From Phycisphaerae bacterium (GTDB lineage: Bacteria > Planctomycetota > Phycisphaerae > UBA1845 > Fen-1342), in the NCBI GenBank assembly GCA_963675745.2, contig CAXXWX010000026.1, positions 128,001-192,000 on the forward strand: a stretch of DNA of 64,000 nt, written 5' to 3'. Within the stretch, counting starts at the first letter, position 1; each line of letters opens with the position of its first letter. Of this stretch, positions 4,871 through 21,725 are shown in pieces. The position numbers were made by a program, and so were the translations under genes. Under the pieces are notes generated by a model. It did no database searches. It was not told the origin of the DNA and saw only the letters and a list, made by a program, of their open reading frames with translations.

Positions 4871-7800
4871 TTAGAACTCGATCGTCACGCTGTTTGAGCA
4901 TTGGGTGGCGCTACCTTCCTCGCATACCTCGTAGGTAAACGAGCCGGTAATGTCCTTGCCCAGGCTATCGCGATAGGCACCGTCATTGGTCGTTGTCGCA
5001 ATTAAGGCGCCGTTGCGATATATGTCCACGTTGGCCCCTACCGCGCCGGTCCATTCGAGATCGACCGTCTGCTTCTGGCCCAGCTTAAAGCCCACGCCAG
5101 TGAGCACGATGCCGGGACTGTCGGGCGTCGTTGCGCTGGCGGTGTTCGAGTACGCCGAGTCGCCGAACCCGTTGGTGGCCCGGACGCGATAGAAGTAGGT
5201 CGTCAGCGCGGACAGGCCGCTGTCAGAGTACGTAGTGACGTTCGCCCCAACCGTGTCGATGGTCGCCCAGGACGCACCATCGAGAGAGCGGTCGATCTCA
5301 AACCCGGACTCGTTGTCCGCGTTGTCGGTCCACCCGAGATCGATCTGGTTGTATGCGACCGCCGTCGCTCCCAGGGCGCTCGGGGCCGCCGGCGGGTCGC
5401 CCGGTCCCGTGTCGGAACGAATGAACATGTGATCGACATAGAGACTGTCCAGCACACGGTTGCCGCTGGTCTGGTCGGTGTCAACCACGCGGATGTACAC
5501 GGTGCCGGCGGTTGATGCTGGCAACGTAAAGGACTGGTACGCGCCGTCATCGCTGGTCTTGACCACCGTGACCATGGGGGTGTAGCTCGCATCGTCGGTC
5601 GAATAAGCGAAGATGAAATGGTCACCCTCGCTCGTCGGATCCTGATACGCGTTGAGATAGAACGTAACCGCGGTGCCGCCGGTCACGTTGATGGTCCACT
5701 TATGCTCCAGGTAGCTGTAGCGGTTCTGCGGCTTGCCGCCCGACTCGCGCTCAGTGAGTATCTCGCTCACGCCGTTGTCGGTCTGCGTGTCCACATACGA
5801 ACCGGATACCGAGCCCTGGACCGGCACGTCAGCGTTGGCAACGTCGTCCACATACTCCGGCGTTTCAGCGACCGTCACCGTTAGTTGATCGCTGGCGGTC
5901 AGAGCGCTGTCGTCGGCTTCCAGTTGAAGCACGTAAGTGCCGGCCGTGTCGAACTGCGCGGTCGTGTCCTCCGTGTTAGCGTCGCCGAACGTCACCGTAC
6001 CCGGGCCACTGACCTTGCTCCACGTAACCGTGAATGCCGCCGGCGGATCGGGCAGGCCATCGTCGGTCACCGTTCCGTCGAGATTCGCGGTCTCCTGGAG
6101 CCCGATCGACTGATCCGGACCGGCGTCAACCGTCGGCGCCTGGTTCGGGCCATCAACCGTGATCGTCACATCGTCGCTCGCCGTCAACTCGCTGTCATCG
6201 GCGGTAAGCCGCAAGACATATGTGCCGGCAATGCTGAACGCCGCGTTTGTATCCTCTACGTTGGCGTCACCGAACGTCACCGTGCCCGGGCCGCTGACCT
6301 TGCTCCACGTAACCGTGAATGCAGCCGGCGGGTTGGGCAGACCGTCGTCGGTCACGGTCCCGTCCAGGTTAGCGACGGCCGGCAGCGTTACGCTCTGATC
6401 GACGCCTGCATTAACACTCGGCGGCTGGTTTGTGATTGTGACCGTGATGACCACATCATCACTTGCCGTCAGTTCGCTATCATCGGCCGTGAGCCGCAGG
6501 GTATATGTGCCGGCAGCGCTGAACGAGGCGGTCGTGTCCTCCGCATTGGCGTCGCCGAACGTCACCGTACCCGGGCCACTAACCTTGCTCCACGTAACCG
6601 TGAATGCCGCCGGCGGGTCGGGCAGACCGTCGTCGGTCACCGTCCCGTCGAGATTCGCGGTCTCCTGGAGCCCGCTCGACTGATCCGTACCTGCATCCAC
6701 CGTCGGCGCCTGGTTCGGGCCATCAACCGTGATCGTCACGTCGTCGCTCGCCGTCAACTCGCTGTCATCGGCGGTAAGCCGCAAGACATATGTGCTCGCA
6801 ACGCTGAACGCGGCTGTCGTGTCCTCGGCATTGGCGTCACCGAACGTCACCGTGCCCGGACCACTGACCTTGCTCCAGGTAACCGTAAACGCGGCCGGCG
6901 GGTTGGGCAGACCATCGTCGGTCACCGTGCCATCCAGGCTTGCGACAGCCGGCAGCGTTACGCTTTGATCAACGCCGGCGTTAACGCTGGGCGGCTGGTT
7001 GACCGGCTCACCGGTCAACCTGGGCGCTGCACAGATCGAGAACGCCTGGGGGCCCTGCGGCACGCTGTACCCTGTTACTTGCACTGTCCACGTGCCCGCC
7101 GCCGGGTTGTTCACCAATACCTGCTCGATGTTGTTTACATGATCGGCCTGCGTCTGGACCGCGGGCGAACTCGGGCTGGCCGGGTTGAGCGTCCATGGAT
7201 ACGCCGGGTGACCGAGCGGATCGAGCACCACCAAGTCCAGGTCATTCACGAGGGCCGGGTTGACGTTCGGCGTGCCGGGGTGATCGTCCCAGGCCAAAGT
7301 CACTTTCAGCAGCGACTCGCCGGCGTTTACGGTGATCGGGTAGGTGACCGTTCCGCCCTGGCTCACCTGATTCTCTTCGAACGCGCCGCTGCGCATGAAA
7401 TCGATAGTGTCCTGGACGCGCACCGAGCCATAGCCGTAAACGTAATCCGGCCCGGTGTTACCCAGATCGACGGCTGTATGCGCGAGCAGGATCTTGCATG
7501 TCGAGTTGCGCGGCGCCGGTGCGGATGGGAACTGGGCGTAGTAATCCTCGAGCACCAGCACGAGGCAACCCGTCACGGTTGGAGCGGCCATCGATGTACC
7601 ACACAGCGTGGTGTATGCCGTGTCGCTCGATGAGTAGCATGATGTGACGCCGTAGTCGCTGCTGCTTTGGCAGCCGGGGCCCACGATGTCGGGTTTGAGG
7701 CGTCCATCGTCAACCGGCCCCCAACTGCTGAAACTGGTCATGGTGTCATTGTTCGAATTGATGGCGCCGACGCAGATGTGGTTCTTTGCGCCGGATGGCG

Positions 7801-9025
7801 GAGCGGTGCTGTAGTAATCGCCATAGCCTTCGATGTCGCAGCGGCTGCCCTGTCGCTCGTTGCCGGCGGACCAGACAACGCGGAACGGAGCACCCAGGCT
7901 CCCGCCGACGATGGCGTCGATCAGCGCCGACGTCACGCCGTAGTCGCCCTGGATCGAACACGAGAACCCGTTCGTTTCGGTGTTGGTGCCGATCGAGTTA
8001 TTCGCGATTTCGGCGCCGTATGTGTTGATCGCCTGGTTGTAATCAGATTCGAGATCGCCCGGGTTGCTGTAGAGGAAGATGCCGCTGCCATCGTACTGGA
8101 ACCCGTACGACACCATCGTGACTCCCGGAGCCATCCCCGCATAGGTGCCACCGCTGGCGGCGCCGCTGCCTCCGACGGTGCCCGCGACGTGCGTCGAATG
8201 ATAGTGCGTGCCGGAGCTGTCACGCACGGTCAGCCGTCCGCCGAAATCGTCGTGCGAAGCGCGTGCCGTTCCGCCGTCGTAGATCATCGCGGTAATCCCC
8301 GAGCCATCCAGGCCGTACGGGGCGGCTTGCACCGTGTCCGCTTGCACGCGCGTCCGGTTGTTGTCGTTGGTCACGGTCATATAGGGCAACGGCGGTTCGA
8401 TCCACATCACCGCGTCGGTATCGGCCAGCGCTTCGAGGTTGGCCCGCGGCAGTTCGATCACCAGGCCGTTCAGCGAAGCAATCTCGGATACGATCAGCGC
8501 GCCGTGCTGCTCCGCGATGGCGAGCCCGTCGTCATACAGCGACACGTCACCATGGAACAGCACATATGCCGCTACAAACTCCTCATCGGTGAGCGGATCA
8601 ACGCCGACTGCGAACTCGGGGTATGCGTTATTGAGGATCGCGGGTGCGAGCTTGTGGGCCCGCGCGATGCCCTGTGCGGCGCGCAATGAGGAGACCGCGC
8701 CGATGGCGCCGGCATCGCAATCTTGTCGCAGCGCGGCGAAGAAGGCGTGATCTCCCAGGTAATTCAACAGACTCAATCCGGCGTCTTTGAGTTCGGCGCG
8801 CTCAGCCGGCGTCACGGGACGCTCAAACTCAACGATTACATGCCGTTCAGCCGGTCGTTCGGCGAGCGCGGTCAACGCTTCGTGGACGGCAACCTGCGCT
8901 TGCGGGCCGTTCGCGACCGCCTCGGCTCTCCAATGAACCGCGGCGGGCACAGGGCGCGCGGCTAGAATCACCATCCCGACACCGACTATGCCGGCGAACA
9001 TCACACGATTCACTCTTGCTCCCAT
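4871..9025 (-). CDS. Secreted subtilisin-like S8 serine protease with four PKD-like repeats and an FN3 domain
   Basis: It has a signal peptide and the catalytic triad motifs [15 protein letters not shown] and GTSMAAP, plus [14 protein letters not shown]. These are followed by an LKVTLAWDD...NDLDL domain, 4 x NQ.P.V.AG.DQ repeats and an FN3 domain (PAAPSAL...LGW...YFYRVRATN). Confidence 0.93.
5870..7002 (-). repeat. Intragenic tandem duplication with a 570-bp period (A-B-A-B PKD-like domain pairs)
   Basis: Nearly identical blocks are offset by 570 nt, e.g. CGTCGGCGCCTGGTTCGGGCCATCAACCGTGATCGTCAC at 6131 and 6701. Ends are approximate. Confidence 0.85.
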
Positions 9026-9482: not shown

Positions 9483-12400
9483 CTAATCCGGATCTCCGTA
9501 CAGCACGAAGGCGGACCAGTAGTATGGGTGTTCGTACGGGTGGACCGCGTCATCCGGTTCCGGCGGTCGTTGATGGGCCACTTCAGTACCGCGCTCTACC
9601 GCCGGCCCACCAACACTCATGGCGAGCGGACCGCTGCTCTGTAGCTCGCGCACCTCGGCTCGTGTCGCACAGCGCAGCCAGTGTTTCGCTTCGCGCAGCG
9701 CTGCGGCTTTCGGCATGGCAGCGCCGGCGTCATACGTGCGACCAGCAACCGCGCGCGGCGTGTCGAAGCGCCCCAGCAGGTTCTCGTAGAACCGCGTCAT
9801 CAGCAGCGCCGTCGCCGTGTCATCAACCTTCCACAGACTCAGCACCAGGCTGCGCGCCCCCGCCGCGAACAGCGCTTGTGAGAATCCCAGAAAGCCCTCA
9901 CCGCCGCCGGCCTTGCCCAACGCGGTCTGACACGCGCTGAGGGTCACCAGATCCGCGTCCAGCTTCCAGTTGCGGGCGATCTGGTCGGCGGTCAGTCGGT
10001 TGTCGTAGACCCGCCGATCTGCCGGCGCTGTCGCGGGAGAATCCGACGGTTCGTCTTGCGCCAGCAGCAGGGCCGAGCGCATCGAGACCTGATCATCCAT
10101 CACGCCATGTGTCGCGAAGTGGAGGACGCGATAGGTCTGCAACTCACCAGAGTTGGACAGTTCCTCGAGTTTGTGCTCGCTGGCGGCGGCGCCCAGGAGA
10201 ATCGTGGGCGGCTCAGTGGCTGGTAGCCCCTCAAACAGCTTCGCGACCGCGGCGACCTCGCGACGTGACGCCGGCAACGGAGCATAAGACTCGCCACGGA
10301 CGGCCAGCGCACGGGCCAAACGGTGTCGGGCGTTGACGGCATCGGCAACCGGCTGCCGGCTTACGCGCAGGCCGACTTTGCCCGGCGCCACCGACAAGGA
10401 TCGCGTCTGGCCGTCGCGCCACACCTGCACCGGCACGCGCGCCGGTGCAACCTCGGTAGCCGCCGCGCTTGCCTGGTCACCGGCGTCGGAATGCTCACCG
10501 GGCGCCGCGCGGCGCTGGGCGGCGGACTTTATCGCCGGTCCAAGGTCACGGGCGGTCGCCAGTTGCTGGCCATCATAGCTGAGGACAACGTCGCCGGCTC
10601 TCAAACCGCCGCGCTCGGCGTTGGAGCCGGGCAGCACGCTGGCAACCAGTACGCCGTACTCCGGCGGCTCGGACTCGGCGTCGGCATGCTTGTCCCGCTG
10701 CGGGAAGGCCGGATCACCCAGAGCTAGCAACGAGCGCCGGCCCTGCTGTTTTCCCGGTTCAGTATCCTGCCGCCGTTTTTCCACCAGCCACGCGTGCATC
10801 GTCCCGGATGGTGCATAGCTGACCGTGTACTCATCCGTCAGCACCTCGATCGGAATAGGGCTCATCACCCCGGCCGGCAGGATGATCAACTGCTTCACCG
10901 GCGGCCTGGCCGCACCACCTGCGAGGTGTGGTTGTATGGGGGCGATCCGCTGCGCGTACACCCGCTGAATGAGCTCTTCACGTGCCGCCGCCGTGCCGCC
11001 GCCCACCTGGCTGAGGGCGTTGCGGAGCTGGGGAAGCAGTTGGCTGTCCGCCTTGGTCCACGCGCCATCTTCACCACTGCCGGGCAGCTTGACCCAGGCG
11101 GGTGTACCCTGATGCCGCACCACGCAGGCCCAGTGCTCGTCGCCGGCGGAGTTGGCAAGGGCCGTGCTGTTAACATCGAGCCAGGCCACCAGGGCCGCGT
11201 CGATGGGAATCTCGCGTTGGATTTGGGACAGCTCGCGGACCTCGCCGGCCGTGGGACCGTGCCGCTCCCGCATCGTGAGGTTGAACCGAATGAGCTCGGC
11301 CTTGAGCGTCTCGCGCTCGCGCTCCAGCGTGTCGAGCAAGGCATCGCGCTCAGACGTTGCGGGCTTGGCGCGCATGACCGCGATGCGCTCATCCAACCGG
11401 CCGAAGCGACCGACCATGTTCTGTTCGGTCTCGCGCTCCGTCTTCGTCAACGGCCGTGCCTGGCGAAAGGCGATTTCGTCGAGCACGCCGCGTGCGAAGT
11501 GCGCCTCCAGGTGTTGAAAGGCAGCCGCCGGACGATCGAGGTACGCTTGAACGGCGGCGAGGGCGGTGAGCGGTGTGCCGCGCAGCTTGGCCCGTTCGAG
11601 ACCGCCGCTGGCGCTGGCGTGCAGGCGCGCCTTTTCAAACAGCTCGGCGGCTTCGATCAGCAGCGTCTCGGCCTCCGCGTACTCGCCGTTGTCCTTCAGC
11701 AGGATCGCCAGGTTCATCAGGCTGCGCACCGTGTCCGTGTGCTCGCGGCGTGCCGATTCGCGGATCACCGCCAGCGCCTCGCGCAGCAAGTGCTCCGCCG
11801 CCTCAGAATCACCTCTGTCGCGTAGCAGGCCGGCCAGGTTATTCAGCGAATACACGACGTCCGGGTGGTCCGGCCCCAACAGCCGGCGTCGCATGGCCAA
11901 CGCCTCTCGGAGCAACGGCTCGGCCGCGTCGTAATCCCCCTTGGCCGCCAGCAGCGACGCCAGGTTGTGCAGAGTGGCGGCTACGTCCGGGTGCTCATCG
12001 CCCAGCAACTTCCGGCGCAACGCCAGCGCTTCGCGGTAGATCGGCTCGGCCGCCTCGTAATCGCCTTTCTGCTTCAGCAACAACGCCAGGCTGGTGAGGC
12101 TGAGCGCCACGTCCGGATGCTCGTCGCCGAGTAAGCGGCGTTTCATCGCCAGCGCCTCGCGATAAAGCTGTTCGGCCGCGGTGTCGTCGCCTCGGACGTG
12201 CAGCACGTACGCCAGGTTGTGCAGACTGCTCGCCACCTCCGGATGATCGTCGCCCAATGCGCGGCGCCGCCCCGCCAGCACCTCGCGCCTGTACGCCTCG
12301 GCTTCGGCGAACCTGCCCATATCGTCCAGCAGTCCGGCCAGATTATTGAGCGAGGTCAACGTGTTTGGATTGTCCTCACCCAGCACGTGTCGACGTCTGT

Positions 12401-14106
12401 CGAGAACTTCGTGATAGTAGCCTTCCGCCTCGGCGTACGCGCCCATGCGCTCGAGCACAAAGGCCATGTTGTTGATCGACGTCAGAGTTCTCGGATGGTC
12501 GTCGCCCAATATACGACGGCGGGTCTGCAACACGTCGCGAAAATACGTCGCGGCCTCTTCATAGCGGCCCATTTTCTCCAAAAGCCAGCCCAGGTTGTTG
12601 ACCGTGGTCAGCGTATTGGGGTGATCCACGCCGAGCACGCGCCGGCAGCCGTCGACCGCCTCACGTTGGTAGTGCTCCGCCTCGCTGTACCTGCCCAGCG
12701 TAACCAGCACACTGCCCAGACTGCTGAGCGTTGCCAGTGTTCCGTAATGCTCGTCGCCAAACACGCGCTGCCTGATTTCCAGGGCCTCGCGGAGATGACG
12801 CTCGGCCTCCGCGTACTTGCCCATCTGGGCCAACAGCAGCCCCATGCCATTGATGATCGTCAACGTGCGCGAATCTTCATCGCCACAGACCTTGCGGAAC
12901 CCGGCCAATGCCTCACGGTAGTACGGCTCGGCTTCCTTGGGCTTTGCGCATGTAGATAAGCGCTGTGCCCATGCTACCGATGGCCTCCAGTGTCCGAGTG
13001 TCTTCCGGGCCCAGGACACGCCGCGCGGTCGCGATGGCCCGTCCATAGACTGTAGCGGCATCCTGGTAGGCGCCCATGTCGAGGAGGATGTCACCCAGGC
13101 CTCTGAGCGCGTTCAACGTGTCTGGGTTGTCGGGGCCAAGCAGTCGGCACCTCGCCGCAAGAGCCGCGCGGGTCAACGCCCCCGCCCGCGCAGCGTCGCC
13201 ATTCTGTTTCGTCGACACCGCCAGGTTGACCAGGCTCACCACCGTATGGGGATGCTCGCCGCCCAGAGACGCCTGCCAGTGCGCCCACGCCTGTCGATAG
13301 AGCACTTCGGCGGCCTCTTCGCCGCCATTTTCCCGCAACAGCGATCCGAGATCGTTGAGTAGTCTGGCCACGTCCGGGTGCTCGTCACCCAGCATGTGGC
13401 GACGGATCGCCAATTGCTGTCCGATTTCCGCCAGTGTCTGGTCCGTTGTTGTCTCTTCTGATTCGGACCTAGCACGGTAGGCGGCGCTCAGGCCGACGCG
13501 CCCTTCAGGCGGGAGTCTCAGTTGATGACGCAAGTCGTCGATCAGCCGCTGAGCGTCGCCGATCTCGAACCAGGTAGCCGGCGCACCGTCAGCATTCGTC
13601 CAACCGGACTGATATCTCTCGCGGATCGCCAGCACACGTTCGGCCAGTTCCAGCGCCTCGGCTAACGCGGCGTCTTGCGCCTCGGTGTCGTCACCTTGAA
13701 GGCCGCTGCGGCGTAGTCCGTCGACGCGTTCCTTGAGTGCATCAACTTCGAGTTTGACATCCTCGGGCAGCTCAGGCCTCGGCAACGCGGCCCCATCGAG
13801 CAGCGCCAGGACTTCCTCCAACGTCGGGATCGGCGCCAATGAGCTGAGAATCTCGTCAGTCGTCGGCGGGCTCAGGCTCTTGATGAACGCATCCAGATCA
13901 AACGCCGCCCCGATCGCCAGCAGCTCCTCTTCACTCATTGACCGCTCAGCGCCCTCTCGAGACGCGGCGGTTTGTTCGGCATCGACGTCACCGTTTCCTC
14001 GGGAGTTCGCTGTCTGGCCACAAGCCGCATGAGCCGTGACCGTTGTCATGGATAGAGCCACCGCCAGGAAGGCGCCGTGCGTGATCCAACTGCTTTTGCG
14101 TCCCAT
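9483..14106 (-). CDS. Exported TPR-CHAT (caspase-like) protease with a PDZ insert, copy 1; split by a +1 frameshift at about 12943-12945
   Basis: ORFs 12913..14187 and 9483..13094 join into a continuous TPR (IYMRK-PKEAEPYYREAL) if one A is removed from CGCAAAGCCC. The likely start is MGRKSSW with a signal peptide. It has 14 x 42-aa TPR, the HFATHG/LSACQT dyad, SLWKVDD and HPYYWSAFVLYG. Confidence 0.88.
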
Positions 14107-14190
14107 GCTTGTTCCCCGATGGTTGATCAACGTTGTTCGTGGTCCGCGTCGTGCCGGTCTCAACTGCGCCCTGGGAGGAATCGACAATCG

Positions 14191-15984
14191 CTACGGCTCC
14201 CTGGGCCGAACCGGCATCGCTATGACTCGCACGGCATCAAACGCGGGGTCGCCGGCGAGTTGCCGCGCGACCGCCTCCATGGCGCCGGGCGCAGTCCGAT
14301 GCTCCATCTCAATGCCGCGATTGCCGGGCTCCTGACGCCAGATGGCCTGGCCGTCCGAAGTCCACACGGTCGGCGTGTTGGCGGCGAATGAACCTGGATT
14401 CGAGCTGCGCCACGCCGCTTCGAGCAATGCGCGGCCCGGCCAGTCCGCGTAGCGCGGCAACGGCTCCCGTGAAGCTACCACTGCGAACGCTTGCAGGCCC
14501 GGCCCGTCGGTCAAGTGATAATGCACGTTTCCGCCGGGATAACGCGCTGCGGCAAGCCGATCCGGCGGAACGCCATCCTGCCGAGGGTACTTGCAGGATA
14601 CGCTGCCGTTCGTGTCAAAGACCAGCAGGTAGTAATAGGCCGGTTGGCTTAACGTTGTTGCAAGCTGGACACCGTCGTCGCCGACGACCGCCCAGGAATC
14701 CACGCCGATCCGGCCGAGCAGTCGGCCGGCGGAATTCGGATCGCGGTAGTCGTCGTAACGATAGTGCTCCAGCGCCAGCGGATCGATGCGCAGGTCGCCG
14801 GCCATCGCGCGTTTGGTCTGGTGACCCTTCATTGGCTCGATGGGCTTTGGCCAGATACCGTTTGCGAATGCGATCATCGCGATCACGGCCGCGGCGATTG
14901 CGCCGATCCAGATCCACGCCCCGCGACGAGGTGGAGCAATTTCCACCGCGGCGCCCCCGGCATTCCGAAGCGCGTCGGCGACGTCCTTCATCGACGGAAA
15001 ACGCTGGCTCTTGTCCTTGGCGATGCAGCGTTTGATGGCCCTGGTCAGTGCCGGTGCCACACCCCGGGTCAGCTCTTGCAGCGCGCGCTGCGGCACCAGT
15101 GACTCGTGCGGCGACACACCGGTGAGCAATTCCGACAGCAGCACGCCTAGCGCGTACTGATCCGCCGCCGGCGTACCGGGCCCCTCGGGGGGGCAGTAGC
15201 CACGCGTGAAGCCGCGCCCGCTGGATTCATCCTCGCTGCGCCGCATGAGCCCGTAGTCGGTCAGTTTCCACGCGCCGCCGTGGCGGATCACGTTGCCGGG
15301 CTTTACATCGGCGTGTACAGCGCCGCACTCGTGCAAATGCGCGAGAGCATCGGCGAGCGCGGCCCCGATCTGGGCCGCTTCGCGGGCCGGCAGGTGTCCG
15401 GCGCGGTTGAGCTTGATGCGCAGCGTCAGCGGCTGATAGTCACCAGGAACCACGACCGGCGAGCTGCCGTTGGCGTTGTCGGCCAGCGGCATGAGGGCGT
15501 AAAGCCAGTCACCGGCCGCCCCGACATCCTCGATGGCCAGCAAATGCGGGTGTTCGCCGACGCGCTGCTTGAGCGTTCGCAGGCCGTCCAACTCGAGTGG
15601 CGTGTCGCGACGGAAGAGCTTGGCCGCGCGAAAGTGCTCGGTGTAAGTGTTCCGCGCCAGCCAGACCTGGCCAAAGCCACCCTTCCCCAACAGACGCAGC
15701 AGCTCGTGGTTCGGAATCTGCACAGGCGGTTCACACGCGGTTTCGGGCTGCACAGCCCCGTCAGAGGCCGGCTGCGGGGAGGTGATCGTCTCGTCTGGCG
15801 CGCCAGGTGATGAAGTCAGCACGGGGTCCAGGTTTGCCCGCCTGGCCACGAAGTCGGCGAAGCCACCATCGAAGCCGCGCCGACAAGCCCGCTCAAAGGC
15901 CTCATGCACCGACTCCAGCCAGCCGCCATCAGTCCGGCGTGATGGCTCGTCGCGCTCCCCGGTATGATTGCTGCTGCTCGCCAT
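14191..15984 (-). CDS. Membrane Ser/Thr protein kinase with a C-terminal extracytoplasmic DUF4384-like domain
   Basis: Kinase motifs are LGKGGFGQVW, AAK, HADVKPGNV, LTDYGL, TRGYCPPE and DQYALG. A TM helix follows (WIWIGAIAAAVIAMIAFA). The ectodomain reads GDDGVQL..LSQPAYYYLLVFDTNGSV...YP...GLQAFAVVASREPL. Confidence 0.9.
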   Translation of the reverse strand: MASSSNHTGERDEPSRRTDGGWLESVHEAFERACRRGFDGGFADFVARRANLDPVLTSSPGAPDETITSPQPASDGAVQPETACEPPVQIPNHELLRLLGKGGFGQVWLARNTYTEHFRAAKLFRRDTPLELDGLRTLKQRVGEHPHLLAIEDVGAAGDWLYALMPLADNANGSSPVVVPGDYQPLTLRIKLNRAGHLPAREAAQIGAALADALAHLHECGAVHADVKPGNVIRHGGAWKLTDYGLMRRSEDESSGRGFTRGYCPPEGPGTPAADQYALGVLLSELLTGVSPHESLVPQRALQELTRGVAPALTRAIKRCIAKDKSQRFPSMKDVADALRNAGGAAVEIAPPRRGAWIWIGAIAAAVIAMIAFANGIWPKPIEPMKGHQTKRAMAGDLRIDPLALEHYRYDDYRDPNSAGRLLGRIGVDSWAVVGDDGVQLATTLSQPAYYYLLVFDTNGSVSCKYPRQDGVPPDRLAAARYPGGNVHYHLTDGPGLQAFAVVASREPLPRYADWPGRALLEAAWRSSNPGSFAANTPTVWTSDGQAIWRQEPGNRGIEMEHRTAPGAMEAVARQLAGDPAFDAVRVIAMPVRPREP

Positions 15985-15987
15985 GGG

Positions 15988-18900
15988 TCACTCCGAATCG
16001 CCGTAGAGGACAAAGGCGGACCAATAGTATGGATGTTCGTAGGGTCGGCGTACACTGGTTGCATCCGGTGCCGCGTGGTGTGTCATCTCTGTCCCACGGT
16101 CGGCAGCCGGGACATTGTCCACCATCGCAAGCGGCCCGGTGCTTTGTAGCTTGCGCACCTCGTCCCGCGTCAGGTGTCGCAGCCAACGCTTGGCCTCATC
16201 CAGCGCGGCCAGTTTTGGCATTGGCGTGCTCGGGACATACGTCCGGCCATGCACTTCACGTGGTTGGCTGTACGTCCCCAGCAGGTTCTCGTAGAACCGC
16301 GTCATCAGCAAGCTCGTCGCGGTGTCATCCACTTTCCAAAGGCTGGCGATCACCGTCTCCGCGCCTGCGGCGAAGAAACCAAGCGGCAAGGTCATCATGC
16401 TGCCACCGCGCTGTACGCCACGGCCGGTATCGCAGGCGCTGAGCACGACCAGCTCGGTGCCGTCGAGACGCCCCAGCCAGCGCTGGAACAACTCGTCGAG
16501 TGTCAGGAAGCCAATGTCGTCCGGCGTCGGCTTGTCGGGACGCGCCAGCGCCAGGCTGGCCTGCTCGGGATGGTCGGCATTGCCCGTGAGCCCGTGCGTG
16601 GCCAAGTGCAAGATGCGCGGCGGCTTTTTGCCGAAGGACACATTGCGCAGGCGCGGGGCCGATGCGGCGCCGCCAAGCAGGGTGACTGGTTCGACGCCAG
16701 CTTGATCCAGAAGCTCCGCAATCGCACCCGCTTCGCGCCGCGTGCCGGGCAGAGGCCTGAGCGACCCGCCGTGCAGGCGGATCTGGTCGAGCGCAGTGGC
16801 GTCGGCCCACTGTTCACTCGGCGCCTGATCGAAGAATGCCATTGAACGCAAGCCGGAGGCGGGCGAAGCCGGCGACGGCACGATTCCCAAGCGTCCGACG
16901 GCCAGGCGCGCTTCGAACGTCTCACCGTCACGCCACACGCCGGCAACAACAGGGCGACTGCTGTCGTCCCGGCTTTCGCCCGCAAAGCGTTTACTCGCGG
17001 CTGCAATGGCCGGGCCCAAGTCAGCGACGCTGCGCAGCGATTGCTCGGCATAGCTGAGCAGCACATCACCACGCCGCAGGCCGCCAGCAGCGGCATTGGA
17101 GCCGCGCTGCACCATCGCCAGCAGCACGCCACCCTCCGGATATTTCGGCTCAGCGACTCCGCCGCCGCCGAAATCGGGATCGCCTATCACAACTGCCCGC
17201 GCCGCGACCGCCCGCGCCCGCGCGGCGGCCCGGCGACGATCCATGGCGACGGTCGCCGATGGTGCGTATGCAATCGGCTTGTCCTCGGTCAGAAGTTCGA
17301 ACGGGATACCGTGCAGCGGCCCATCCGGGACAACGATCAACGTTGCGGCGTCGGCGATCGTGGCCTGCAACATTGCCGGTAGCAACGCCTCTCGCAGCTC
17401 AGCAACCGATGTCGGATTCAAAACCCGCGCTGTGCTCGGGCGCTTGGCAAGCGGTTCTCGGAGCCGCATAACCAGCTTCTCCAGCCGCTGGACCTCTTGC
17501 GGGCCCTTGGACAAGCGCCAACCCTGCACGCCGTTCCGATCGGCCGCAAGAACCGCCACGAGGTCGTCGGTCCAAATGATTGACAGCAGCATCTCGCCGG
17601 TTGCCAGAGCCGATTGAATCTCTGACACCTGCAACGGCTCAGCGGCCGGGATCAGATGTCGAATCTCGGCGAAGACTGCGGCGGCCTTTTCGCCGAGTTG
17701 GCGACGCAGGCTCGTCACCCGCGCATCCGCTTCCGTGATAAGTTGATCGAACTCGGCGACTTTGGTCGCGCGCTCGGTATCGGTCAGCGATTCGAGCGCT
17801 TCACAGGCTTTGCGCTGTCCGCGCAGGACCGGCAGGCGCCATTCAGCGGCGCGCACAGCCGTCTGCGCCGCGGCCTCAGCTTTCAGAGCCTGTTCGAGCC
17901 GCGCCGCGGCTCCGGTGTCACTGTTCGCGCGGGCCGCGCCGATCAGGTCCGGCTCTTCGCGCGATAGCAGGTCCAATGCCGCCCGCGCGCGGCCCCGCTC
18001 AGCGACCGCCAACGCTTCCACGAAACGCTTGTCCTCAATCAGCAGATCGCAATAGGCCGCCGCGATGGCGGAGAGGCGCAGCCGGCCCGCGAAAGCCGCC
18101 CGCTCCTGCAACCCGCCGACGACATCGACGCGCAGGCGCTCCGCCGCGGCCAGCGTCTCCCGATAGAGCGGCTCGGCATCCGCCAGCCGGCCCTGCGCCG
18201 CCAGCGTGCGGCCCAGGCTGTTGATGGTCGCGAGCGTTCGTGGGTGCTCAGCGCCCAGCGCGCGACGACTTATTTCCGCCACACGCCGCAAGCAACGCTC
18301 GGCCTCCGCCGGTTTGTGCTGTGCGAAAAGCAGGGCGCCCATGTTGTTGAGCGCAGCAAGCGCGGCGGGATGTTCCTCGCCCAGCACGCGGCGGGTGCCC
18401 TCCAGGGCCTGTCGATAGTACGGCTCCGCCTCCGCCAACCGGCCCTGCAATTCGAGCAAAACGCCCATGTCGTCCAGCGAGCGCAGCGTCTCCGGGTGAT
18501 CCACGCCCAGAACGCGCTTGCGGCCCTCCAACGCCTGCCGCAGGTACGGCTCGGCCTCGGACAGTCGACCACGCTCCGCCAGCAAGATCCCCATGTTCTG
18601 GAGCGAAGCCAGCGTGTCAGGGTGCTCGTCACCCAGCGCGTATTGCCGGTCCTCGAGCGCCTGCAGCAAATACATTTCCGCCTCGGTATAACGCCCCTGT
18701 TCCTGAAGCAGAGCGCCCACACTGCTGATTGCGCTGAGGGTGTCAGGGTGGCTATCGCCCAAAACGCGGCGGCGGCCTTCCAGCACCTGTCGCCAGTACG
18801 GTTCCGCCTCGGACAGTTGGCCCCGGGCCTGGAACAGGTACCCCATCCACGCAATCGAGCTCAGCGTGTCCAGATGCTCCGCGCCCAGTACGCGGCTGCG

Positions 18901-20457
18901 GAGATCCAGCGCCTGCCGCAAATACGGCTCGGCCTCGGACAGCCATCCCTGCTTCGCGAGCAGGGCCCCCATGTTGCTGATCAGCGTCAACGTGCTCGGG
19001 TGCTCCGCGCCGTAGACGCGCTGATGACCCTCCAGCGCCTGCCGGTAATAAGGCTCAGCCTCGGCAAGCCGGCCCTGCGCGACGAGCAAAAGGCCCATCC
19101 TGTTCATCGATTCCAGCGTCTCTGGGTGATCGGCGCCAAGTACATGCAGTTGGCCGTCCAGCGCCTGTCGGCAATACGCCTCGGCTTCGGGCAGGCGACC
19201 TTGTGATCGAAGCAGAGAACCCATTCTGCTCAGCGACATCAGCGTTTCCGGGTGGTTCGCACCCAGAGTGCGGCGACGGCCCTCCAACGCACGCCGATAG
19301 TACTGCTCGGCTTCCACAAGTTGGCCCTGCGCCTCGAACAGACTGCCCAGATTGTTGCAGCTGGTCAGCGTATTGGGGTGATCCTCGCCCAGCAAACGTT
19401 GCTGGCCCTCCAGTGCCAGCCGCCAGTAGTGCCCGGCTTCGGCCAGCCGACCCTGGGCATGAAGCAGCACGCCCATGTTGTTAACCGCAGTCAGGGTGCT
19501 TGCGTGATCCTCGCCCAGCACACGGCGGCGCCCTTCCAGTGTCTGCCGATAGTATGGCTCGGCCTCACCGAGCCGACGCTGCTCCATAAGCAGGATGCCC
19601 AGGTTGCTGGCGGCGGTCAGTGTTTCCGGGTGTTCCGCGCCCAGCACGCGGCAATAGCCCTCCAGTGCCTGCCGATAGTATGGCTCAGCCTCGCACAGGC
19701 GCCTCTGCGATCGAAGCAGGCGCGCCAGCCAGGCAATCGAGTTCAGCGTTTCCGGGTGTTCCGCCCCCAGTGTGCGACGATAGCCCTCCAGTGCCTGCCG
19801 CCAATACTGCTCGGCCTGCGCCAGTTGGCCTTGGGACTGAAGCAGGCAACCGACCCAGGACTGCGCGCTGAGTGTGTCCAGTTGCTCTTCGCCAAGTGTA
19901 CGACGGCAGATGCTGAGTTTGCGCTTGGCCAGCGCCAGGGCTTGGGCATGCTCCCGGGCAGCGTAGAGGCGGGCGAGTTCGGCCTCCGCCCCATCGAGCG
20001 AGGCGATCTCAGCCCGGGAACCGGCATCGAGCGCGCGTAACCGACGCAAGCGTTCGAGCTTCCTTGTCGCGTGAACTACCTCGTACCACACGCTCGGTTC
20101 ACCGGACGTTTCGCGCCAACGAACCACCTCCAGCGTGTTTCCCTGATGCTTCTCACGCAGCCCTAGCACGCGTTCGGCAAGCCGGATTGCCTCATCGAGC
20201 GCGGCATCCTGCTTCACCGTCGACTCCATCGTCAGCCCGTGCTTCTCCAAATCAGCGACCCGCTGCTCCAATCCGGCCACCTCCGCCGCGAGTTCTTCCG
20301 GCAATGTCGGGCGCGTAATTTCGAGTGGGCGGAGTTCCGCCGGTGGCCGGTTGGGGTCGGGCGTCGCTGTGGCAATGCTTGGCTGAGCAACGCAAGCCAG
20401 CAAAGCAGCGATCAGCATCGCTGATTCACTCAATCGGAGTGGGATGGCTGAGAGCAT
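15988..20457 (-). CDS. Exported TPR-CHAT (caspase-like) protease with a PDZ insert, copy 2
   Basis: It has a signal peptide-like N-terminus (the start could be the second Met, MLIAALLACVAQPSIA), 14 x 42-aa TPR, LIVVPDGPLHGIPFE, the HLATHG/LSACDT dyad and HPYYWSAFVLYG. Its stop lies 3 nt from the kinase ATG. Confidence 0.92.
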   Translation of the reverse strand: MLSAIPLRLSESAMLIAALLACVAQPSIATATPDPNRPPAELRPLEITRPTLPEELAAEVAGLEQRVADLEKHGLTMESTVKQDAALDEAIRLAERVLGLREKHQGNTLEVVRWRETSGEPSVWYEVVHATRKLERLRRLRALDAGSRAEIASLDGAEAELARLYAAREHAQALALAKRKLSICRRTLGEEQLDTLSAQSWVGCLLQSQGQLAQAEQYWRQALEGYRRTLGAEHPETLNSIAWLARLLRSQRRLCEAEPYYRQALEGYCRVLGAEHPETLTAASNLGILLMEQRRLGEAEPYYRQTLEGRRRVLGEDHASTLTAVNNMGVLLHAQGRLAEAGHYWRLALEGQQRLLGEDHPNTLTSCNNLGSLFEAQGQLVEAEQYYRRALEGRRRTLGANHPETLMSLSRMGSLLRSQGRLPEAEAYCRQALDGQLHVLGADHPETLESMNRMGLLLVAQGRLAEAEPYYRQALEGHQRVYGAEHPSTLTLISNMGALLAKQGWLSEAEPYLRQALDLRSRVLGAEHLDTLSSIAWMGYLFQARGQLSEAEPYWRQVLEGRRRVLGDSHPDTLSAISSVGALLQEQGRYTEAEMYLLQALEDRQYALGDEHPDTLASLQNMGILLAERGRLSEAEPYLRQALEGRKRVLGVDHPETLRSLDDMGVLLELQGRLAEAEPYYRQALEGTRRVLGEEHPAALAALNNMGALLFAQHKPAEAERCLRRVAEISRRALGAEHPRTLATINSLGRTLAAQGRLADAEPLYRETLAAAERLRVDVVGGLQERAAFAGRLRLSAIAAAYCDLLIEDKRFVEALAVAERGRARAALDLLSREEPDLIGAARANSDTGAAARLEQALKAEAAAQTAVRAAEWRLPVLRGQRKACEALESLTDTERATKVAEFDQLITEADARVTSLRRQLGEKAAAVFAEIRHLIPAAEPLQVSEIQSALATGEMLLSIIWTDDLVAVLAADRNGVQGWRLSKGPQEVQRLEKLVMRLREPLAKRPSTARVLNPTSVAELREALLPAMLQATIADAATLIVVPDGPLHGIPFELLTEDKPIAYAPSATVAMDRRRAAARARAVAARAVVIGDPDFGGGGVAEPKYPEGGVLLAMVQRGSNAAAGGLRRGDVLLSYAEQSLRSVADLGPAIAAASKRFAGESRDDSSRPVVAGVWRDGETFEARLAVGRLGIVPSPASPASGLRSMAFFDQAPSEQWADATALDQIRLHGGSLRPLPGTRREAGAIAELLDQAGVEPVTLLGGAASAPRLRNVSFGKKPPRILHLATHGLTGNADHPEQASLALARPDKPTPDDIGFLTLDELFQRWLGRLDGTELVVLSACDTGRGVQRGGSMMTLPLGFFAAGAETVIASLWKVDDTATSLLMTRFYENLLGTYSQPREVHGRTYVPSTPMPKLAALDEAKRWLRHLTRDEVRKLQSTGPLAMVDNVPAADRGTEMTHHAAPDATSVRRPYEHPYYWSAFVLYGDSE

Positions 20458-20576: not shown

Positions 20577-20608
20577 GGCACGACGCCCCCCCCCTGAGCC
20601 GTCGTGCC
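20577..20608 (-). terminator. Hairpin just downstream of the 31-aa small ORF
   Basis: GGCACGACG...CGTCGTGCC is a 9-bp perfect stem with a G-rich loop, 26 nt after the small-ORF stop. There is no U tail. Confidence 0.35.
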
Positions 20609-20634
20609 TGCGCCGCGTGGAACGTGTTCGCCGA

Positions 20635-20730
20635 CTACACGGAAAAGACTTCCCAGAGTCTGGTGAGGATCGCCGACACGAACTCGCCCGCGTTGTAGAG
20701 CAACGGCTGAATGAAGGCCTGCTGATACAT
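20635..20730 (-). CDS. Putative 31-aa peptide MYQQAFIQPLLYNAGEFVSAILTRLWEVFSV (below the ORF-track cutoff)
   Basis: A GAGGAG Shine-Dalgarno lies 7 nt before the ATG. The composition is protein-like rather than Arg/Pro/Ala-rich, a hairpin follows the stop, and it is co-oriented with the cluster. Confidence 0.6.
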   Translation of the reverse strand: MYQQAFIQPLLYNAGEFVSAILTRLWEVFSV

Positions 20731-20857
20731 GTGCAATCTCCTCATGGCACGCGTGGCCAGGCGATGAATCCGGACGATCCGAATTCCTGCTCACGGTCGC
20801 CTGCTTACCGTGGCGGGCGGTCGCGATTGTGTTGCTCAAGCAACCGCCTGCCTTTCA

Positions 20858-20910
20858 CCCCTTCATGCGTAATTGCGGGCGGACATTGCGGAAAACTCCT
20901 GTTTTTTTTC
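20858..20910 (-). promoter_or_regulatory. Candidate alternative-sigma (ECF-type) promoter upstream of the peptide/CHAT genes
   Basis: The minus strand shows an A-tract (A8) then TTTTCCGC-AATGTCCGCCCGCAAT-TACGCATGAA, a bipartite non-sigma70 arrangement. The assignment is inference only. Confidence 0.3.
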
Positions 20911-21161
20911 TGAGAGAGGAACGGAAGCCGACATGGACGACGTACTAACGGGCTTCAGGAGAGTCTGTTGCTCAGAAGTGTGCCACGGCTCTGTGAGCCG
21001 TGCGTTTTGCGGCAAGGCGGTACTGCTCAAGAGCACTCCACCCGTTTCATGACGACGGCCTGCGAGGCGCAGGCCGCTACTGTGCCATACGCGCAAGACA
21101 ATCGCATCGGAGACGGCGCTAGTGCGTAAGACGCCAGGGTTGCGCCGGGGAACCCACGTGA

Positions 21162-21725
21162 TCACGTGTCGAGGGTTGCCGCCCGCGCCAGCCAGTCCTT
21201 GGCCTTCTGCCAGTCGCGGCGAACAGTCTTGACCTCGACACCCAGAATGTCAGCGATGTCGGCGTCTTTCAGGCCGGCGAAAAACCGCAGCCGCACCACC
21301 TCCGCGGCGCGTGCGTCGACGTGCTCGAGTTTGCCCAGAACGGCGTTGACATCGACCGCATCGAGCGCGCGCTCATCGACGGCGATCTGGGCGGGGTCAA
21401 TATCGGCTCTCTGCGCCTCCCCGCCGCGCTTCGCCGTGCGCCGCTTGCGGGCCGCATCGATCAGCACCTGGCCCATGGCTTGGGCGAAGGCCCCGAACAG
21501 ATGACGCCGGTTCGCCAGCGCCGCCTCGTGCCCGCCGAATACCTTGCAAAACGCCTCGTTTACCAGAGCCGTCGGCTGCAATGTGTGATCCTGGCGCTCG
21601 CGCGCCATCCGGGCGGCGGCCATGGCGCGCAACTCATCCACAACCAGCGACATGAGCTGGTCGAGCGCTCCCGACTCTCCTGTCCTGACCCCTTGCAGCA
21701 GTTTCGTGATCTCGGCGGGTTCCAT
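21162..21725 (-). CDS. ECF RNA polymerase sigma factor, TIGR02999/ECF43-like (kinase-associated type)
   Basis: Reads EITKLL...ALDQLMSLVVDELRAMAA...HTLQPTALVNEAF...AKRGG...AEVVRLRFFAGL...IADILGVEVKTVRRDWQKAKDWL. The start is placed at MEPAEIT; the upstream extension in the ORF track looks spurious. Confidence 0.93.
   Translation of the reverse strand: MEPAEITKLLQGVRTGESGALDQLMSLVVDELRAMAAARMARERQDHTLQPTALVNEAFCKVFGGHEAALANRRHLFGAFAQAMGQVLIDAARKRRTAKRGGEAQRADIDPAQIAVDERALDAVDVNAVLGKLEHVDARAAEVVRLRFFAGLKDADIADILGVEVKTVRRDWQKAKDWLARAATLDT

Follow-up and report, generated by a model that had tools for sequence, protein, structure and literature searches.

A six-residue code shared by bacterial CHAT proteases and neighbouring membrane kinases, and a possible cut-and-read switch

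Described systems and the planctomycete locus

In the Craspase system, Csx30 has a C-terminal domain, of DUF4384 type in some cases, with a loop that the protease Csx29 cuts, according to the available parts of two reports (10.1101/2022.08.17.504292, PMC10028731). We studied a locus with related parts in a 64,000-nucleotide stretch of DNA from a Phycisphaerae bacterium (assembly GCA_963675745.2, contig CAXXWX010000026.1, positions 128,001 to 192,000 of the forward strand). This whole stretch is called the window, and its numbering is used wherever no contig or locus is named. The locus encodes a sigma factor of the extracytoplasmic function (ECF) type, a membrane Hanks-type Ser/Thr kinase and two TPR-CHAT proteases, CHAT1 and CHAT2, and a short arginine-containing motif is shared by the kinase ectodomain and the tails of both proteases.

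The Craspase arm (Csx29/Csx30/CASP-sigma/RpoE), as far as the available parts of the reports describe it, is alike in that a neighbour controlling an ECF sigma factor has, in its C-terminal domain, a small loop cut by a TPR-CHAT protease (10.1101/2022.08.17.504292; PMC10028731); at the planctomycete locus the cutting is a prediction from sequence. Csx29 differs in being cytoplasmic and activated by RNA via Cas7-11; its cut falls after Met, most single loop changes are tolerated, and its target is an anti-sigma factor. Here, in contrast, the protease has a predicted signal peptide and is partnered by a Hanks kinase in the membrane, whose loop has a co-evolving copy in the protease itself. Neither Cas7-11 nor Csx30/Csx31 was found among nine neighbouring proteins in a Pfam scan, with no search aimed at Cas genes or arrays.

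DdvA/DdvS of Myxococcus xanthus also ties a periplasmic TPR-CHAT protein to an ECF sigma factor, with autoproteolysis proposed, but the available part of the report presents DdvA as a single transmembrane anti-sigma factor with a fused CHAT domain, and mentions no kinase and no shared peptide (PMC11506125). In our locus the protease is separate from the membrane kinase, and the DdvA architecture, with zinc anti-sigma, transmembrane helix and TPR-CHAT in one chain, was not found. The EcfK-PknS and EcfP-PknT pairs resemble the locus in that the gene for an ECF sigma factor bearing a phospho-Thr motif, QxTA, lies near that of a transmembrane Ser/Thr kinase that has a periplasmic domain, but no protease input or DUF4384-like ectodomain is described for them in the part of the source available (PMC13147305). 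The locus shares the features of such an ECF43-type pair, namely a QTTA-like motif in the sigma factor and an adjacent transmembrane Hanks kinase, and by analogy the kinase would phosphorylate the sigma factor. The type III-B SAVED-CHAT/PCaspase/PCi/PCk/PCc-sigma system of Haliangium likewise clusters a CHAT protein, a Ser/Thr kinase and a sigma factor, and proteolytic control of its kinase has been hypothesised; it is cytoplasmic, however, activated by cA3 via SAVED, and uses a second caspase, with no shared motif reported in the available part (10.1101/2023.06.23.546230).

Separase/securin, again as the available parts of the sources have it, is alike in belonging to clan CD and in its TPR-like region, Arg at P1, autocleavage and pseudo-substrate regulation (PMC4626109, PMC7863939); Arg cleavage here is predicted. 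The specificity of separase lies before the cut (ExxR, in the accessible part of PMC4626109), whereas here the code comes after the Arg and the residues ahead of it vary freely. The initial annotation had pointed to separase and taken R|G as the recognition site; a separase-like site is not supported, because kinase and protease share information at P2'-P7' alone, with none at P2-P6, and P4 is neither conserved as acidic nor co-varying, so the (D/E)xxR feature of separase is absent. By analogy, the system seems to work most like a Craspase arm joined to an ECF43-kinase pair and, like DdvA, placed in the periplasm.

The shared motif and its co-variation

A locus-specific six-residue code co-evolves in two non-homologous neighbours, and this is strongly supported. 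A total of 100 loci were scanned: L007-L104 and the two modules of this genome. They gave 75 tail candidates, of which five without an in-frame helix were dropped; 59 loci had both partners, and removal of five duplicates left 54. Each Arg was picked blind to the partner sequence. Per-position identity at P2'-P7' was 0.35-0.59 between cognate partners and 0.10-0.14 between non-cognate ones (z ~14), and 0 of 20,000 permutations matched the observed co-variation score. No clear cognate excess was found at P2-P6 or P8'-P10' in these 54 loci. At least three of the six residues were identical in 30/54 cognate pairs, compared with 188 of 2,862 non-cognate ones. Co-variation between each CHAT tail and its cognate kinase, which the initial annotation had named as the check on its proposal, is thus borne out.

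The signal was also evaluated with relatedness taken into account. When each of 20 clusters (50% scaffold identity) was represented by a single locus, z was at least 5.5, and at six clusters the signal faded. Cognate partners won all 16 same-genome swaps, which come from nine genomes and overlap, and 13 of 15 comparisons of tree-disjoint pairs (p=0.007). Sixteen held-out pairs, collected later and mostly from distant subfamilies, gave z 5.1, or 3.7 when counted as eight lineages. When about 200-2,100 six-frame R[GSA] sites per locus were scored, the CHAT tail came out on top in 22/54 loci. The codes can be compared by eye: RGEPRAR in a kinase stands beside RGEPRAK in its CHAT, RGKGVKAR beside RSKGAKAR, RGDVRPLA beside RGTVRPLA, and RGTKTRRN beside RGDKTRRD. 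No third gene or small peptide with the code was found between the sigma gene and CHAT2 (open reading frames (ORFs) of at least 20 amino acids), and none was consistent across the 54 loci.

In the window itself, the motif reads ERGTEVAH in the CHAT1 tail (9573-9596), NRGIEMEH in the kinase ectodomain (Arg556; 14299-14322) and DRGTEMTH in the CHAT2 tail (Arg1454; 16078-16101), all on the minus strand and all where the initial annotation had placed them. Short-read contigs of run X1, possibly the window's own source sample, span the three sites with zero mismatches. Among the 32,487 six-frame ORFs of the 5.2-Mb genome, the pattern RG[TI]E[MV]xH is found three times, at these sites; about 2e-5 matches are expected per 200-residue domain, and the count is only a rough check because the pattern was derived from the same three peptides. 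The annotation's view that the match is not simple paralogy holds up: the motif (8/14 identical) is the only BLASTP segment at E<1 between the kinase ectodomain and the CHAT2 domain, and a profile-profile comparison of the two families gave a probability of 1.2%. Hidden homology was rejected on these results and on the different folds. Recent DNA copying was rejected for this window because codon third positions differ among the three motif copies.

The genome has only two family ectodomains. The second belongs to a module with a sigma factor, a kinase-TPR protein, a kinase with ectodomain and CHATs (C26:7352-17692, C26:60-3964), in which the kinase code RGTIRER faces CHAT tails RGTVRER and RGSIRQR. 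An orphan TPR-CHAT at C19:144782-150679 has the tail ERGAEVAH, a CHAT1-like N-terminus and no family kinase near it; three proteases may feed one kinase, because the orphan's code fits the window kinase and not the other module. At L097 (L097:3-5878), which encodes a CHAT2 relative (51% identity), kinase and CHAT both carry R-D-P-x-P-R in place of R-G, and the blind rule scored the locus as a miss; the code may include P1', because these partners share R-D-P. The CHAT tails of L061 and L065 have a tandem RG-T-RG, in which the second RG bears the kinase match. At L064:6280-11556, kinase, ectodomain, TPR and CHAT lie in one 1,759-residue frame, either a fusion or a read-through artefact, and L077 has a similar frame of 1,635 residues.

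On the kinase side, the ectodomain profile finds 1,586 clusters (50% identity) at E<=1e-3, with the best 150 of them listed, and conservation was read from 154 complete domains in a set of 158 proteins; the family was found in 40 of 401 genomes of one planctomycete class. The Arg is conserved in 98% of the 154 ectodomains, although the loop around it varies; the next residue is G in 82%, A in 11% and S in 5%. The expectation that kinase homologues keep the motif was right for the Arg and the next residue; the exact RG[TI]E[MV]xH is local, and only R-[G/S/A] is fixed across the family. A CHAT was found at 63 of the 72 unique kinase loci with enough sequence. The kinases of L079, L089 and L090 have lost R-[GSA], and no CHAT lies within 10-13 kb downstream of them.

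The window ectodomain (14194-14796) is modelled as an Ig-like beta-sandwich with a predicted local distance difference test score (pLDDT) of 93.5. Its best Ig-like match in VIA-align, which gave generic Ig-like matches only, has Z 7.2, root-mean-square deviation 3.7 and 131 aligned residues, and Foldseek gave no match at E<=0.001. The match to PF14326 (DUF4384) is weak (22.6 bits, E 1.1e-4, below the cut-off of 27), and two of 12 homologues have a precomputed one. The motif loop is a fairly ordered coil (model residues 156-170, pLDDT 80-85). In the CHAT2 model the tail loop is disordered (pLDDT <50). The motif is coil in both models, in favour of the initial annotation, which had counted burial among the outcomes against itself.

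On the protease side, R[GSA] is present in the tail loop of 144/147 CHAT homologues, a set biased to close relatives, and the catalytic dyad is intact, with His in 142/144 and Cys in 143/144. The CHAT2 fold matches Csx29 (best, 8eey), DdvA, SAVED-CHAT, separase and gingipain R; 8rot (DdvA) is the sole solved structure matched by sequence (E 0.0014). The tail loop is an insertion ahead of the last core strand, and is missing in six of seven CHAT stretches without a family kinase and present in one (L153). These seven stretches are 15-16 kb each and were judged by eye; one of them, L147, has a weak DUF-like match. With the acidic S1 pocket of Arg-specific clan CD proteases (separase, MALT1, gingipain R) in view, two acidic residues, E1242 in the first helix after strand beta1 (141/144) and D1378 (144/144), are conserved in a placement reminiscent of MALT1 D365. 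A second conserved R[GSA] loop is found in 143/152 CHATs (background 26%); it lies past the PDZ insert, 6-10 residues short of helix alpha1. The sequence after its Arg is unlike that of the tail, and over 33 loci it shows no co-variation with the kinase (z 1.5).

A cut-and-read switch and its rivals

From these sequence patterns, the motif likely marks a cut-and-read switch which tells each kinase its own protease. Our best explanation overall, offered tentatively, is that the CHAT cuts after the Arg, the new N-terminus is read by the Ig-like domain of the kinase, and the kinase and sigma factor are switched. Its parts differ in strength. That the CHAT cuts after Arg is probable, when this explanation is summed with the active-site alternative weighed below, and in its favour are the conserved Arg and small residue, the intact dyad, the disordered tail loop, the clan CD fold matches and the Csx29 precedent; reading of the new N-terminus by the kinase ectodomain is possible, though a little less so than not.

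The proposed switch would run as follows. The first step is observed: the code pairs each kinase with its adjoining CHAT, and parallel modules in one genome differ in code. Both loops, in the CHAT tails and the kinase, are predicted to be extracytoplasmic, facing the periplasm. A ligand at the TPR or PDZ part would activate the protease, and the active protease would cut R|G/S/A in its own two flexible loops and in the kinase loop. One groove, most likely on the kinase ectodomain, would take either new Gly-x6 N-terminus, which is the weakest step; the protease copy would then dock or compete nowhere but at its own kinase, with the kinase copy as a tethered ligand. The kinase would then phosphorylate the Thr of the sigma factor's QPTA, by analogy to PknS/EcfK.

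Eukaryotic protease-activated receptors follow a similar logic, in which a cut exposes an N-terminal peptide that is read by a groove, and the IAP-binding N-termini of caspases and Smac are like N-termini that compete for one groove. Only the logic is alike; the proteins and folds are unrelated, and the comparison is one of analogy, not homology.

The code is probably read by an element other than the active site, because the second R[GSA] loop of the same CHATs bears no match to that of the kinase. Should both CHAT loops be self-cut sites, the active site would need only Arg and a small residue, and another element would select P2'-P7'. The PDZ insert was considered as a reader of the new C-terminus and is unlikely, because residues before the Arg do not co-vary and several cognate CHATs have no insert (e.g. 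L013, L014, L033). Suggestive of the kinase ectodomain as the reader are its fairly ordered loop and the coupling of motif to scaffold inside the domain, which is strongest for P2' and P3' (z 7-8, with positions 61 and 67). The trends are those of complementary charge: where P2' is basic, position 67 tends to be acidic (66/77 vs 25/141), and where P4' is basic, position 42 tends to be acidic (52/90, vs 2/33 for acidic P4'). In tree contrasts of motif against ectodomain residues, where nothing rose above the noise of 4,800 tests, net charge gave rho -0.23 (p 0.018).

A number of observations weigh against the cut-and-read switch. At most one of the six residues is identical in 12/54 pairs and in 10/16 held-out pairs, and the partners in the subfamily of L103, L137-L139 and L142 have little in common past R-x-x-P. 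In tree-based contrasts (4,800 tests) the motif-to-scaffold couplings were not sustained (largest |z| ~4); they may be subfamily signatures, and a loop resting on its own domain would likewise co-vary with it. Mutual information between the tail motif and the CHAT scaffold brought out no coupling, in a test of low power (effective number 29), so the active site may yet be the reader. The second R[GSA] loop is no more than a candidate self-activation cut site, and it is present in CHAT1 and missing from CHAT2, which has HGG in its place. The acidic residues E1242 and D1378 are also found in CHATs without the RG loop, and characterised CHATs cut after Met or Leu, according to the available part of PMC11506125, which leaves Arg specificity putative. 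A sigma gene was seen within 3.5 kb upstream in 33 of 72 loci only, a minimum count. Finally, the window kinase has, at 15243-15315, HAD for HRD, DYG for DFG and a short activation segment; its paralogue at C26:11264 is canonical.

The strongest rival, which we consider rather unlikely, is that the CHAT active site itself reads R|G and P2'-P7', so that the kinase loop is the substrate and the protease tail a decoy or auto-processing site resembling it. All of the co-variation results would fit this too, as would the intact dyad and the missing tail insertion in six of seven CHAT stretches without a family kinase. R-[GSA] is also missing in 3/9 kinases without a CHAT neighbour and in 3/63 with one (p=0.023), although the three look related. 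Separase substrates, on the other hand, are set before the cut (ExxR, in the available part of PMC4626109), and here nothing ahead of the Arg co-varies; what follows the Arg of the second R[GSA] loop is unrelated; and the motif showed no outstanding coupling to any CHAT position, in a test of low power. Nor does the model place the tail in the active site: the initial annotation had suggested a pseudo-substrate loop, and no loop seated in the active site was seen, the CHAT2 tail being disordered in the monomer model. Complex prediction with the kinase ectodomain and CHAT2 (domain-alignment residues 215-490, a construct without the N-terminal strands and PDZ insert) scored 0.10 and 0.22 against a mark of 0.32, a result with no bearing either way on binding.

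Binding mimicry without cutting is unlikely. Here the Arg would be an anchor, the kinase loop would lie in a pocket of its own ectodomain, and the protease copy would displace it and activate the kinase, or dock on it, as a ligand. Mimicry accounts equally well for the one-sided code, and it is consistent with the semi-ordered kinase loop, the motif-to-scaffold coupling within the ectodomain and the R-D-P of both L097 partners, which is a poor fit to a small P1'. It leaves unexplained why G, S or A follows the Arg in 98% of ectodomains and 144/147 tails, why the similarity ends sharply at the Arg, and why the dyad is kept.

Very unlikely, in our judgement, is that both loops are tripwire baits for some third enzyme, a trypsin-like protease that could be a neighbour (the S8 peptidase, for instance) or come from a predator or competitor, and that they match because the same outside enzyme cuts them. 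R-small in exposed loops would suit many proteases, the S8 peptidase is encoded directly downstream (4871-9025), and the related ECF43 pair PknS/EcfK responds to amoeba contact, according to the part of PMC13147305 available. Insulation inside the cell fits better, because modules of the same genome use sharply different codes, as the 16 swaps indicate; nor does any consistent third gene with the code occur in the 54 loci. A non-functional origin by chance, hidden paralogy, composition bias or neighbour gene conversion, to which a short motif, Arg and Gly common in GC-rich genomes and a pattern defined post hoc might lend some weight, is barely credible and already largely refuted by the non-homologous domains, the differing synonymous positions (in this window only), the same-genome swaps and tree-disjoint pairs, the adjacent positions and second RG loop that serve as negative controls, and the tails that are the top-scoring R[GSA] site in 22/54 loci.

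The window locus and what the code would mean

All genes of the locus are on the minus strand, in the transcription order ECF sigma factor (21162-21725), CHAT2 (15988-20457), kinase (14191-15984), CHAT1 (9483-14106) and S8 peptidase (4871-9025). The sigma factor (TIGR02999 / PF07638) scores 184.9 bits to TIGR02999, with a cut-off of 126.15. Its QPTA in region 2.2 (21555-21584) resembles the ECF43 phospho-Thr motif QTTA; it was compared with the QTTA consensus only, and the label ECF43-like comes from this motif and TIGR02999. Only part of the family loci carry this sigma type. In the runs, contig depth is far higher over the region between the sigma and CHAT2 genes (20600-21100), which also occurs in many variant copies and is probably a repeated element.

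Both proteases have a predicted signal peptide, a TPR array and a CHAT domain with a PDZ insert. They begin with a signal-like hydrophobic stretch, with no later transmembrane segment predicted in CHAT2; they score 199.5 and 199.8 bits to the CHAT family PF12770 (cut-off 24), and both carry the HxATHG and LSAC motifs. CHAT2 has its catalytic residues His1288 (16591-16608) and Cys1342 (16432-16443), the HGG loop ahead of helix alpha1 (16753-16779), and its tail motif in a loop, modelled at low confidence, that joins the last helices to the final HPYYW strand. In CHAT1 the catalytic His (10104-10121) and Cys (9930-9941) are likewise present, and the second R-G loop, VRGESYAP (10278-10301), stands directly before helix alpha1. 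CHAT1 appears in the assembly as two ORFs, 12913-14187 and 9483-13094. The split is an assembly error in one gene of about 1,540 codons, because base 12943 is missing from the contigs of all three runs, which come from one study and no more than two samples and may include the window's own source. The same may be true of other CHAT genes in this genome that are split as well, at C26:60-3964 and C26:13498-17692.

The kinase gene, two genes downstream of the sigma gene on the same strand, has a Pkinase match of 78.9 bits, one transmembrane helix predicted by hydropathy (residues 356-376; 14857-14919) and the C-terminal DUF4384-like domain. The S8 peptidase is large, with PKD and FN3 domains, adjoins CHAT1 downstream and is possibly an output of the regulon.

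No description of the module and its shared code was found in the literature, in a search that left subscription journals, bioRxiv supplements and a 2020 survey of ECF43 kinase ectodomains outside its scope. To our knowledge, little has been established of bacterial CHAT substrates beyond the CRISPR and gasdermin systems, or of the inputs of ECF-linked receptor kinases. The co-evolving motif is real and strongly supported, and the mechanism is a proposal built on sequence patterns. Convergent co-evolution of a peptide in non-homologous neighbours, limited to the residues after an Arg, is unusual by itself. The locus offers exact candidate bonds, R556-G557 in the kinase and R1454-G1455 in CHAT2, and the family offers natural matched and mismatched pairs, several inside single genomes. 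It is conceivable, if somewhat more speculative than the reading step, that this is a planctomycete family of protease-activated receptor kinases in which an exported caspase-like protease cuts itself and the kinase after Arg, and a shared six-residue neo-N-terminal barcode is read by the receptor's Ig-like domain. If the cut-and-read switch is true, bacteria would have their own equivalent of protease-activated receptors, from which orthogonal pairs of protease and receptor could readily be drawn; a cell could hold many such orthogonal channels, and DUF4384-type domains would gain a function as readers of cut peptides.

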